DNA of 4,891 bases from IMG/VR virus record IMGVR_UViG_2585427789_000012; one strand, written 5' to 3'. This document shows, piece after piece, positions 3,398 through 4,891 of the stretch (the first letter of the stretch is position 1; every line of letters starts with the position of its first letter). The position numbers were made by a program, and so were the translations under genes. The notes beneath the pieces were generated by a model. The model made no database searches, was not told where the DNA came from, and worked only from the letters and a program-made list of their open reading frames with translations. Source of the stretch: a virus (taxonomy: Duplodnaviria; Heunggongvirae; Uroviricota; Caudoviricetes).

Positions 3398-3602
3398 TCA
3401 GGATGGCTTTAGCCTCATTCAGCGCCATATCAGCACTAAATTGCATAAGAGCCAGTGAGTGAGGAACGAAAGCCCCGGTATATTCTGTTTCGCTGGTGGC
3501 GTGCTTATGCGCCTTGTCTGCGATAACAGAAATATCAATCAGCGCGTGCATCAGCGTTTTGATGGCTTCGGCGGCTGCGTCCGGTGTGGTTTTATTGTGC
3601 AT
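3363..3602 (-). CDS. Hypothetical protein, 79 aa
   Basis: ATG at 3602 with SD-like GGGGGA 6-7 nt upstream; it overlaps the stop of the upstream gene by 11 nt. The C-terminal codons run through the G8 homopolymer. Confidence 0.6.
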   Translation of the reverse strand: MHNKTTPDAAAEAIKTLMHALIDISVIADKAHKHATSETEYTGAFVPHSLALMQFSADMALNEAKAILIADCENGGGYA

Positions 3603-3798
3603 AGGTTTCCCCCTGGCGAATACGGGCGGCGAATACCATCACGCAGCCATCAGGAGATTGCTGACGCGCTTCCTGTTCGCTGGTGGCCTCAATGGTAATC
3701 ACGCGCGGTTGTGCCGTGCTCAGGGCGATAAAACGCCAGATGTATTTATTCAGGTTGTACGAGTCCCGCCCTTGCGGGTGTCTGGTATAATTTCTCAT
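3592..3798 (-). CDS. Small protein, 68 aa, first gene of the leftward operon; possibly Icd-like (host cell-division inhibitor family)
   Basis: ATG at 3798 with SD GAGG at 5-nt spacing. It is the C-terminal 68 codons of the 382-aa track ORF (MRNYTRHPQGRDSYNLNKYIWRFIALSTAQPRVITIEATSEQEARQQSPDGCVMVFAARIRQGETYAQ). The Icd-like label is from recalled annotations of P4-like prophages and is not verified. Confidence 0.55.
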   Translation of the reverse strand: MRNYTRHPQGRDSYNLNKYIWRFIALSTAQPRVITIEATSEQEARQQSPDGCVMVFAARIRQGETYAQ

Positions 3799-3905
3799 AG
3801 CTGCCTCGATACTTCTGCTATCGTTGGTGGTTAGACGCCCTGCATGTGTTGCGAGCACTGCGGGGCGTTGCTTAATTTGAGTGACAAAACTCAAACTGTG
3901 CGCAC

Positions 3906-3935
3906 AGATTAAAATCATGTGTGCGCACATGTCAA
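3906..3935 (-). promoter_or_regulatory. Candidate leftward early promoter (-35 TTGACA at 3935-3930; -10 TAATCT at 3911-3906, 18-bp spacer)
   Basis: Perfect -35 hexamer on the minus strand with a moderate -10; predicted start near 3899, giving a ~100-nt leader before the ATG at 3798. Confidence 0.4.
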
Positions 3936-3938
3936 TAC

Positions 3939-3967
3939 TTAACATCTCATTTTTTTTGCTGTATTGT
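3939..3967 (+). promoter_or_regulatory. Candidate rightward promoter (-35 TTAACA at 3939-3944; -10 TATTGT at 3962-3967, 17-bp spacer)
   Basis: Sigma70-like hexamers read by eye, positioned divergently from the leftward promoter and upstream of the ATG at 4004. Confidence 0.3.
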
Positions 3968-4003
3968 GTGCGCCCATAAAGTCCATTTAAGTGAGGTGCA
4001 TCA

Positions 4004-4201
4004 ATGTCTAGCGGTAACACAAACAACAAATCAGCAAAGAAAAATATTCGATTCCCACATGAGCTTATAGATGGGATTGATGCCAGCGTTGAACAAGAAA
4101 AATTAACTAATCCTAGTGCTAATTTTTCCGCATGGGTCTTAGATGCCTGTGGACGCAAATTAAAATATGAACAGCGCCGGAAGGCCAAAGAATCAGAATA
4201 A
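4004..4201 (+). CDS. Small DNA-binding protein, 65 aa; putative ribbon-helix-helix (CopG/Arc/ParD-like) regulator
   Basis: SD AGGT 6 nt upstream of the ATG. KKNIRFPHELIDGIDASVEQEKLTNPSANFSAWVLDA fits the RHH pattern of an N-terminal beta-strand followed by two helices. It is divergent from the early operon and next to the palindromic operators. Confidence 0.5.
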   Translation: MSSGNTNNKSAKKNIRFPHELIDGIDASVEQEKLTNPSANFSAWVLDACGRKLKYEQRRKAKESE

Positions 4202-4243
4202 TCACTATCAGCGCCGTGGTGTGAGTAACTACGGCGCATTGCT

Positions 4244-4432
4244 ATGCAGGGCAACACAATGACCGATAAAGAATTGACCAAAACATTATCACCGACACGG
4301 AAAAGACGGCGCAGAAAGATAGAGCATGAATCAGAAAGATTCGCACCTTGTTCGTTTGCTCTTGAGAAATTCCTTAAAGAGCGCAGGAAAAAACTCTCGT
4401 TGCAAACCTTGGAACGAACCAAATCTGACTGA
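4244..4432 (+). CDS. Hypothetical very basic small protein, 62 aa (or 57 aa from the ATG at 4259)
   Basis: ORF containing TRKRRRRK; weak SD for the 4244 start, AGGG 9 nt upstream of the 4259 start. A terminator follows. Coding status is uncertain. Confidence 0.3.
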   Translation: MQGNTMTDKELTKTLSPTRKRRRRKIEHESERFAPCSFALEKFLKERRKKLSLQTLERTKSD

Positions 4433-4498
4433 TCACATTGCCCACCAGCCGCAAATGTGGCATTGTTGGTGATGCTTTTGTTTTCCCTTGTTCCCACT

Positions 4499-4527
4499 GG
4501 CGACCCTTTTGCGGTCGCCTTTGTTTT
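4499..4527 (+). terminator. Rho-independent terminator (stem GGCGACC/GGTCGCC, 7-nt loop, TTTGTTTT tail)
   Basis: Perfect 7-bp GC-rich stem at 4499-4505 and 4513-4519, followed by a U-tract at 4520-4527. A weaker bulged hairpin with a U-rich tail precedes it at 4443-4484. The reverse complement has no U-tract, so it is + strand specific. Confidence 0.65.
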
Positions 4528-4565
4528 GCCTGTTATCCGGCAATAGTGGCGCTTCACCACACGGT

Positions 4566-4574
4566 TGATATAAT
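4566..4574 (+). promoter_or_regulatory. Extended -10 promoter element TGATATAAT
   Basis: Perfect TATAAT at 4569-4574 with TG at 4566-4567; no good -35, which extended -10 promoters can lack. Predicted start near 4581. Confidence 0.4.
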
Positions 4575-4580
4575 TCCCCT

Positions 4581-4651
4581 GCACTGATCCATTTTTTTCG
4601 CAGCAGGTTAATTGTTCAGAAAGGCGGTTCCTTATCGGGGCCGCTTTTTTT
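4581..4651 (+). ncRNA. Candidate ~70-nt small RNA (from the extended -10 promoter to an intrinsic terminator)
   Basis: Predicted start near 4581. Terminator hairpin GCGGTTCC (4624-4631), loop TTATC, GGGGCCGC (4637-4644; two G-U pairs), then T7 (4645-4651). No ORF of note lies between them. Confidence 0.3.
4624..4651 (+). terminator. Rho-independent terminator (8-bp stem, 5-nt loop, T7 tail)
   Basis: Stem GCGGTTCC/GGGGCCGC with two wobble pairs, followed by TTTTTTT at 4645-4651. Confidence 0.55.
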
Positions 4652-4891
4652 ATGCCTGAAAATACCCGATAACATGGCTTTTTAGTTTCACCAGGACGAA
4701 CGAAGCCCCGCCCCTGTTCGGGCGTATATCCAGTATTCATGGTTAGATCTCTGTGTTAGTGGATGGGTGGCGGCGGTGCGCCGCCAGCCTGATTAGTGAA
4801 CTGCCTCGCGGCTGTCCTTCCATGCCAGAACTTCGGATAAAGACCAGCCAACGGAACGACCGCCGAGTTTACGCCGTGATGGGAATTGTCC

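Follow-up and report, generated by a model that had tools for sequence, protein, structure and literature searches.

The window analyzed here is a 4,891-nt stretch of DNA from IMG/VR virus record IMGVR_UViG_2585427789_000012 (Caudoviricetes), and our subject is the ~100-nt leader of the first gene of an early operon on its minus strand, an Icd-like/Kil-like gene (hereafter kil). Computational comparison showed that hairpin 2, one of three inverted repeats in this leader, is selected on the plus strand, opposite the early mRNA. It is accompanied there by promoter-like and terminator-like signals, which are conserved, and by similarity to SymR, the cis-antisense RNA of symE. These features suggest that the leader serves as template for a small antisense RNA and is also its target, and that this SymR-like RNA, lying opposite the kil leader, probably blocks the translation of kil.

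A preliminary description of the leader, read on the mRNA strand, had listed three inverted repeats, and all three lie where it placed them: hairpin 1 (3877-3894), hairpin 2 (3835-3844 pairing with 3859-3868) and hairpin 3 (3807-3823). Hairpin 2 is, as described, a ten-base stem with one mismatch, its arms being 90% complementary and 14 nt apart. Hairpin 3 (CGATA-N7-TATCG) does sit beside the Shine-Dalgarno (SD) sequence of kil, and its 3′ arm shares one base with the SD GAGG (3804-3807), ahead of the ATG at 3796-3798. The view that this is no simple leader holds up, and its structure exceeds what chance would give: the 106-nt leader folded at -32.1 kcal/mol (z = -3.03), a value that one in 200 shuffles equalled. 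Related loci with an Icd-like protein were retrieved from species genomes (four loci, from Escherichia ruysiae, Shigella, Klebsiella and Tenebrionibacter) and from IMG/VR (160 loci), so that phylogenetic depth comes mainly from IMG/VR. Hairpin 2 was found in 161 of the 165 related loci over which its presence was counted, in about 20 different sequences of one shape.

The strand on which hairpin 2 folds was read from its non-Watson-Crick pairs. Thirty-two distinct sequences were aligned both ways, as mirror-image alignments, and the same 13 pairs (412 cells) were scored on each strand. On the plus strand 93.7% of the cells were paired, 43 of them as G.U, vs. 83.3% and no G.U on the mRNA strand. 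Every wobble-type departure in the hairpin is a G.U pair on the plus strand and a C.A or A.C mismatch on the mRNA strand. The mismatches of the mRNA strand are thus wobble pairs of the plus strand, indicating that the plus strand is the one that folds. The covariation check proposed in the preliminary description was also run, and compensatory changes were found in both hairpin 2 and hairpin 3: with 14 pairs scored on the plus strand, both sides had changed at 9 in hairpin 2, none of 500 shuffles reached any of the five measures used, and pairing dropped to 33-51% in slid-control alignments; hairpin 3 yielded one compensatory change. By minimum free energy (MFE), the plus-strand hairpin 2 was the more stable in 27 of 27 variants (mean -21.4 vs. 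-16.3 kcal/mol) and in all 21 of a second set of distinct contexts, and independent MFE folds contained 41 G.U pairs on the plus strand vs. 8 on the mRNA strand.

A putative promoter for an RNA of this polarity lies within the first codons of kil. Perfect matches to TGNTATAAT (TGnTATAAT, the extended -10 of sigma-70) number 2 in the window, vs. 0.14 expected, and one of them, TGGTATAAT at 3783-3791, is read here as the promoter of the antisense RNA. Among 53 unique relatives the element has the consensus TggTATgaT. Types A (the window's subtype) and B have the hexamer TATGAT or TATAAT, except for a single type A locus, L029, with TATAGT; types C and K have TATGCT. The hexamer is conserved despite its varying distance from the ATG, and its TATGAT variants place His at kil codon 4. 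In 57 unique type A sequences, the third positions of codons 2-18 are near-invariant (mean entropy ~0.03) and the first and second positions are variable; in codons 19-62 the variation falls at third positions, with a mean of ~0.26, about 8-fold above that of codons 2-18. The third-position invariance of codons 2-18 indicates that the 5′ end of the gene is constrained at the nucleotide rather than the amino-acid level.

The predicted RNA is complementary to the SD plus ~80 nt of the leader. The plus strand of 3797-3882 folds at -38.4 kcal/mol (z = -4.40; 0 of 200 shuffles as good), better than the leader on the mRNA strand, and the RNAalifold consensus consists of two stem-loops, the second directly after the first. 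The outer helix of stem-loop 1, between the 5′ end of the RNA and GGUGGUUA, surrounds the complement of hairpin 3. Stem-loop 1 also carries the anti-SD CCUC (3804-3807) and, at its apex, a hypervariable loop of 7 nt (3812-3818). Its pair 4-35 is G.U in all 23 sequences of the consensus, and its pair 7-32 is A-U in 14 and G.U in 9. The junction between the two stem-loops is the 13-mer CTAACCACCAACG, which was present at a fixed offset in 80 of 80 loci, with CTAACCA[AC]nAAC in other subtypes. Stem-loop 2 has the GC-rich form of an intrinsic terminator hairpin and is followed by a T-rich tail, interrupted in the window. Across the relatives, plus-strand tails after hairpin 2 have the consensus TTTGCTnTTT; their mean score is 2.41, vs. 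0.77 +/- 0.79 for a background of random 15-mers drawn from these loci, and 42 of 53 variant contexts have T at 5 or more of 8 positions. On the mRNA strand, hairpin 2 is followed by CUAACCACC, with a tail score of 0.54. In L087, whose stem lacks the bulge, the antisense-strand homologue of this hairpin was classed by a scan as terminator-like (15 pairs, then GCTTTTTTAA). A covariance model built from type A only scored window positions 3797-3882 (+) at 91 bits and picked up types B, C, D, E and K, always antisense, at 31-48 bits; the sense-strand hairpin reached only 11.6 bits. Taken together, the plus-strand G.U pairs, the T-rich tail and the plus-strand -10 make hairpins 2 and 3 best read as the stem-loops of an antisense RNA (Table 1).

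Table 1. Features of the kil leader and its surroundings, with SymR matches in related loci (window positions unless a locus is named; strand relative to the window as given)
Feature	Position	Strand	Basis or remark
Predicted SymR-like cis-antisense RNA, ~77-82 nt	3799-3879	+	+1 at A3799, 7 nt past the -10
Putative antisense promoter, extended -10 TGGTATAAT	3783-3791	+	within codons 2-5 of the Icd/Kil-like gene
Stem-loop 1	3800-3833	+	RNAalifold consensus of 23 type A sequences
Junction 13-mer CTAACCACCAACG (mRNA strand), CGUUGGUGGUUAG on the antisense RNA	3822-3834	-	near-invariant
Stem-loop 2, read as terminator hairpin of the antisense RNA	3835-3868	+	G.U asymmetry, stability, compensatory changes
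T-rich tail TTGCTTAATTT after stem-loop 2	3869-3879	+	tail score 2.43
GC hairpin CCCGC-AAGG-GCGGG (mRNA strand)	3765-3778		invariant; kil codons 7-12; directly upstream of the antisense promoter
Hairpin 1, TTGAGT-N6-ACTCAA	3877-3894	-	5′ end of early mRNA, outside the antisense RNA
Early promoter, TTGACA/16-nt spacer/TTTAAT	3935-3930/3913-3908	-	sequence
Perfect operators TGTGCGCACA	3897-3906 and 3920-3929
One-mismatch operator copy TGTGCGCCCA	3967-3976
Repressor-gene promoter	3939-3967	+	part of divergent control region 3897-3976
Icd-like/Kil-like gene, 67 aa, first cistron of early (replication) operon	3592-3798	-	NCBIfam phage_ICD_like, 70.4 bits
Eta-like open reading frame, 382 aa, same frame as Icd-like gene	3592-4740	-	runs through leader and promoter; open in relatives
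YlcI/YnfO-family (DUF3950) gene, 65 aa, presumed repressor	4004-4201	+	Pfam DUF3950, NCBIfam YlcI_YnfO_N
SymR match	L005 1902-1973	antisense	36.1 bits, local E 1e-5
SymR match	L082 1428-1500	antisense	34.9 bits
SymR match	L006 1428-1500	antisense	32.8 bits
SymR match	L120 291-364	antisense	25.9 bits

The preliminary description had suggested attenuation or translational control in the sense mRNA. Sense-strand attenuation fits poorly with these results, the wobbles, the T-rich tail and the -10 all being on the plus strand, with no U-run after hairpin 2 on the mRNA strand. Translational control survives in part, since RNA structure beside the SD points that way; the selected strand is nonetheless the opposite one. 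We therefore weighed whether the structures might act in the sense mRNA alone, with hairpin 1 as a stabilizer, hairpin 2 in a structural or processing role and hairpin 3 tuning kil translation, and no antisense RNA at all. The folding of the sense leader (z = -3.0) would agree with this, as would a hairpin 3 that abuts the SD or, in other subtypes, shows it in the loop, with one compensatory change between subtypes; moreover, the Watson-Crick covariation of hairpin 2 fits both strands equally. It is the 43 wobble cells, all G.U on the plus strand and mismatched on the mRNA strand, the plus-strand position of both T-tract and -10, and the plus-strand scores of the Rfam SymR and type A covariance models that make a purely sense role unlikely. 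It is also improbable that hairpin 2 is a mere insulating terminator on the plus strand, guarding the repressor promoter from stray antisense transcription and leaving a short transcript with no regulatory role. A terminator-like hairpin with a T-rich tail does lie just upstream of the repressor promoter, and its sequence drifts freely with the structure kept, as terminators do. An insulator, however, would not call for a conserved promoter 44 nt upstream of hairpin 2 with the -10 to +1 spacing of SymR, nor for a conserved stem-loop 1 and junction motif between promoter and terminator, and its resemblance to a validated regulatory antisense RNA would be unexpected.

That resemblance is to SymR, which is a cis-antisense RNA of symE with its promoter inside the symE open reading frame (ORF); silent changes of CATTCT to CACTCC in symE abolish SymR (PMC1891008). 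The Rfam SymR model (RF01809) gave sub-threshold matches in four relatives, on the antisense strand, over its full 77 positions and on the predicted RNA (Table 1). In the reciprocal direction, the best out-of-family match of the type A covariance model was the symR locus, on the SymR strand. The symE hexamer ATTCTA, corresponding to the mutationally validated SymR -10 (TAGAAT), is aligned column by column with ATTATA of the window; the same columns read ATCATA in L003 and AGCATA in L004, L005 and L144, only T1, A2 and T6 of the -10 being invariant. The -10 and the +1 are 7 nt apart in both systems (TAGAAT GCGTGTC A in SymR, TATAAT TTCTCAT A3799 in the window), and the satellite and symE leaders are colinear through stem-loop 2, CTAATCACAATC (symE) vs. 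CTAACCACCAAC, hairpin 3, the ATG and the first codons. SymR resembles the predicted window RNA in its length (~77 nt), in being a cis-antisense RNA transcribed from within the first codons of the ORF that it overlaps, and in a 5′ end that lies a few nt from the start codon (in the window the -10 occupies codons 3-5). Both have the same two-stem-loop layout with a UG(A/G)UUAG junction (UGAUUAG in SymR), and in some variants of the satellite RNA the apex of stem-loop 2 is, as in SymR, GUGUUxGCGCAC-like. No long U-run is present at the end of SymR itself. The two differ in their partners, SymE having an AbrB fold and the satellite RNA lying on a phage_ICD_like gene, in their location, the hsd/mcr region vs. 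the early operon of a phage satellite, and in the control of the overlapped gene, by LexA vs. a presumed satellite repressor. We accordingly regard the predicted RNA as distantly related to SymR, outside the family by the Rfam criterion, and attached to a different gene.

A further point of contact with symE concerns the coding sequences. The first codons of kil (3745-3798) and of symE (L170 1465-1506) align as nucleotides (ATG-xCT-Gxx-ACx-...-CAT), and the alignment possibly extends to GCACAACC, in a different reading frame. It is conceivable from this likeness that the leader, the antisense gene and the 5′ codons move between toxin genes as one cassette.

Hairpin 3, the counterpart of stem-loop 1, shows a different pattern of change. 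Its arms are invariant in type A. In type C they read CGTTA/TAACG, the third pair having changed in a compensatory way, and the loop holds the SD; the hairpin has 4 bp in type K and is wider in type B. Between the invariant arms, in near-identical surroundings, the 7-nt loop (3812-3818) occurs in at least 10 versions (among them GCAGAAG, ACGAGAG, GCAAGAT, GAAAGAG, GCGAAAG and GCAACAG), which are purine-rich on the mRNA strand and of which none makes a stop in the eta frame. The idea that this variation keeps co-resident satellites apart found no support in the four co-resident pairs checked: one pair has an identical ribosome-binding site (RBS) region, and another has a near-identical apex on stem-loop 2.

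Several observations weigh against an antisense RNA of the kind proposed. There is no usable -35 near 3783-3791, and the T-tract of the window, TTGCTTAATTT, is interrupted, with only 4 of 8 positions T by the stem definition used. A type A antisense RNA would end one base short of the AUG, covering the SD only. The likeness to SymR is itself limited: all matches in the relatives are well under the gathering score (61 bits), no SymR match to the copy in the window was obtained even at E ≤ 10 in a 181-nt search, and the reciprocal symR match is marginal (15.7 bits, E 0.02, with rough calibration). Co-resident satellites can share identical RBS regions, so that the RNA would not discriminate between them. 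Finally, polarity on the downstream genes and an override by eta, which belong to the mechanism suggested below, would be carried over purely from the likeness to P4.

Upstream of the leader, in the direction of the early mRNA, lies the control region of the early operon. The placement of the -35 and -10 elements puts the early start at ~3899-3901, in agreement with the preliminary estimate of about 3899. Of the operators, the first overlaps the early start, the second falls in the spacer of the early promoter, and the third is placed over the divergent promoter; the YlcI/YnfO protein presumably binds them and holds the early promoter. Hairpin 1, lengthened to 9 bp in the MFE fold, has a counterpart at the same position in all 15 promoter types examined, with unrelated sequences, and no strand preference was consistent across these types; we take it as the 5′-end hairpin of the early mRNA. 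Promoter, operators and hairpin 1 are wholly different between immunity types.

The early operon is a chain of overlapping genes from the kil-like cistron to the primase, the ATG of the next ORF (3602) overlapping the 3′ end of kil. The kil gene itself is nested. A point absent from the preliminary description is that the leader sits within a long in-frame ORF, in a layout like that of P4 eta and kil. This eta-like ORF traverses the leader, promoter and operators, and runs antisense through the repressor gene. In 62 distinct type A upstream regions, the kil frame is open for a median of 286 codons vs. 6 and 0 in the other two frames, and it is open for at least 100 codons in 55 of them; in one promoter type a stop lies 30-35 codons upstream. 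No family match was obtained for the N-terminal 314 aa of the eta-like ORF, and by analogy with P4, being translated may be more important for this ORF than the protein that results. Because the leader lies within a long conserved open frame, the inverted repeats could in principle be incidental to coding and have no function at the RNA level. This seems to us extremely improbable, as coding constraint yields neither compensatory double changes (9 pairs) nor one-sided G.U, and the encoded peptide is totally different between hairpin types.

Another plus-strand signal is found within the eta-like ORF. The second perfect extended -10, TGATATAAT at 4566-4574 (+), is followed ~50 nt on by a strong terminator at 4624-4651 (+), formed by GCGGTTCC-N5-GGGGCCGC plus T7 with U.G pairs on the plus strand. 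Positions 4566-4651 (+) could specify a further RNA of ~70 nt, lying antisense within the eta-like ORF. In 21 loci the terminator is kept, with changes from U.G to C-G; only some of these loci have the -10. As a trans partner of the leader this RNA was rejected, the duplex at -46.6 kcal/mol being no better than shuffles (-47.3 +/- 3.7 kcal/mol).

The organization of the window can be compared with that of P4. The 65-aa ORF downstream of the P4 CI RNA, which we take to be kil, matches the same NCBIfam model (NF033153, phage_ICD_like) at 76.1 bits. Pairwise BLASTP of the window protein against P4 Kil gave no match; judged by the shared family model, the Icd-like gene is a homologue of P4 kil. 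A published summary of the P4 system describes kil as nested in frame in eta, which starts upstream of the early promoter, and reports that eta translation suppresses immunity-dependent termination (PMC10111431). P4 and the window share the nested in-frame layout with a long ORF starting upstream of the early promoter, after an AlpA/Vis-like gene, as well as a homologous first gene, an RNA acting at the kil translation start (predicted in the window) and an operon leading to the primase. They differ in that the CI RNA of P4 is a sense-strand product processed from the leader that acts on seqA/seqC, whereas the window RNA would come from a separate antisense gene, and in that P4 has no protein repressor at PLE, whereas the window has a divergent repressor gene and operators.

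The possibility that this leader, too, encodes a processed sense-strand RNA, raised in the preliminary description, was examined with the Rfam models. P4 served as a positive control and was strongly matched (C4 at 74.9, isrK at 60.8 and a1b1 at 44.1 bits); the window had no match to C4 (RF01695, clan CL00128), a1b1 or isrK at E ≤ 1 over its whole length or at E ≤ 10 locally, which rules out membership of the P4 CI/C4 family. An immunity RNA of the P4 CI or P1 c4 type, processed from the sense strand and acting on nearby targets, would have a precedent in P4, where such an RNA lies upstream of its own Icd-like kil, and some relatives of the window have true C4 RNAs elsewhere in the operon. The blank search beside the P4 score, the much smaller size of hairpin 2 relative to C4, and the selection of hairpin 2 on the opposite strand make such an RNA very improbable here. 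The C4 RNAs of the relatives are bona fide C4/CI RNAs (72 bits, above the gathering score) with a1b1 and isrK matches, found in L041 (1735-1939), L073 (1735-1939) and L131 (829-1033), downstream of the Icd-like gene and on the operon strand. Their presence indicates that SymR-like and C4-type systems coexist in one satellite.

In nested kil/eta genes of the P4 type, a translation-sensitive (Rho-dependent) terminator is expected downstream of the kil start, and two features inside kil hint at a counterpart. In type B relatives (L087 636-656), a terminator-like hairpin with a U-run lies on the sense strand inside kil, in the same region as the GC hairpin of Table 1. By analogy, this region is a candidate for a translation-sensitive attenuator comparable to timm of P4.

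From the sequence features described above, we infer that the antisense RNA is made and acts on kil, with polarity and an override as further consequences. In the mechanism that we propose, a protein repressor would keep the early promoter shut, as the operators and the divergent YlcI/YnfO gene suggest. The antisense RNA would be made constitutively from the extended -10 in kil, starting at about A3799, and would fold into stem-loop 1 with the anti-SD and the complement of hairpin 3, the GGUUAG junction and stem-loop 2, ending in the T-rich tract near 3879. By analogy with SymR and symE, it would pair with the SD region of the early mRNA and block kil translation, and the pairing might also destabilize the early mRNA. 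By analogy with kil and eta of P4, an untranslated kil would cause polarity on the replication genes as far as the primase. On transcripts arriving from upstream (alpA and the eta-like ORF), translation would continue across the leader, which would let them escape both the antisense block and termination.

A wider interpretation, which we regard as possible and put forward tentatively, is that a portable SymR-type cassette, comprising the leader, the antisense RNA gene and the promoter-bearing first codons, has been grafted onto the kil/Icd-like first gene in the early operons of phage-inducible chromosomal islands (PICIs) and capsid-forming PICIs (cf-PICIs). It would there form an RNA immunity layer replacing the CI RNA of P4, translation of the eta-like ORF would override it upon induction from upstream, and the loop of stem-loop 1 may tune cross-regulation of co-resident satellites.

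Cis-antisense control of a small toxic first cistron is already known from SymR/symE, P22 sar and CopA/tap, and so is RNA control of kil/icd in P4 and P1. Sar of P22, CopA (tap-repA) of R1 and FinP (traJ) of F are short cis-antisense RNAs of two stem-loops, and each lies across the RBS of a first or leader cistron. They control a downstream replication, antirepressor or transfer gene, and recognition proceeds via the hairpin loops. Their likeness to the window RNA is one of mechanism only, with no sequence relationship. The c4 RNA of P1 and P7 reportedly blocks translation of icd and thereby shuts off the genes behind it (icd-ant, immI). As in our proposal, an antisense-type RNA blocks a small cell-division-inhibitor gene; c4, in contrast, acts in trans, arises by processing of the same transcript and is a C4-family RNA, a family to which the window has no match.

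What appears to be new is the combination of a SymR-like RNA with a kil/Icd-like gene within a nested eta/kil pair in PICI-type satellites, a combination of which Rfam at curated thresholds, the literature searched and deposited phage genomes gave no example. The predicted RNA is not in Rfam 15 at curated thresholds, and no description of such an RNA was found in the literature on PICIs, Icd-like genes and antisense RNA. To our knowledge, the regulation of Gram-negative PICIs has so far been described almost wholly via AlpA. In the module described here, AlpA is joined by a divergent repressor gene and its operators, by the nested eta/kil genes and probably by an antisense RNA; if the proposal is correct, satellite replication would be under a second layer of control resembling that of P4. 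SymR, known until now with SymE as its partner, would then be linked to a different family of toxic genes, suggesting that antisense-RNA cassettes travel between toxin genes as modules. For annotation, the lesson is that conserved "leader hairpins" can belong to the opposite strand, and that the side on which the G.U pairs fall settles which.

The region is common in E. coli, matches being present in 1361 of 5426 complete genomes (about a quarter). Most of these begin at window positions 3865-3872, the edge of hairpin 2, and extend to the end of the gene, and no annotated non-coding RNA feature lies beneath the region among the 30 matches listed. E. coli Nissle 1917 has a copy at L167 8960-9044. 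Deposited phage genomes gave zero matches to the 100-nt region. One relative, L142, joins the exact promoter, operators, hairpin 1 and hairpin 2 of the window to a type B RBS region and kil, with the junction at CTAACCA, which shows that the region is mosaic. Hairpin 2 types are likewise reshuffled among promoter types, and both observations point to frequent recombination at the conserved flanks.

E. coli strain 700481 carries in yifB an island (NZ_CM129038.1) that the window matches at 100%, the window representing its regulatory and replication region. In the order of the window's minus strand, the island carries an integrase gene, an AlpA-like helix-turn-helix gene, the YlcI/YnfO-family gene (divergent, on the plus strand) and the Icd-like gene, followed by three small ORFs, a DUF4222 gene, a D5-type primase (with D5_N, DUF5906 and Pox_D5 domains by family search), an iteron region, SSB and a ProQ/FinO-family gene. 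Its late genes specify capsid, protease, portal, connector, HNH and terminase. An island of ~15 kb with int, an alpA-like gene, primase with an origin, and capsid, portal and terminase genes has the features by which PICIs and cf-PICIs are recognized, and this gene set identifies it as a capsid-forming PICI satellite of E. coli. The regulatory and replication backbone is common to three further E. coli islands whose late genes differ, and the divergent YlcI/YnfO arrangement was seen in four islands.

The ProQ/FinO-family RNA-binding protein gene (L001 16399-16929) lies just beyond window position 1. As a chaperone partner for the antisense RNA this protein is unsupported, its gene being present in this island and in none of the other three examined that carry the same module; one of these has a PerC-family regulator in its place and two have no annotated regulator there. 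An AT-rich stretch at ~540-790, 3′ of the primase gene, is dense in direct and inverted GGTGAACAG(T) repeats and is a probable iteron-type replication origin; it also gave spurious microRNA-family matches in Rfam. Lastly, a strong intrinsic terminator at 4499-4527 (+), GGCGACC-N7-GGTCGCC followed by TTTGTTTT, closes a plus-strand unit made up of the YlcI/YnfO gene and a 62-aa ORF at 4244-4432.

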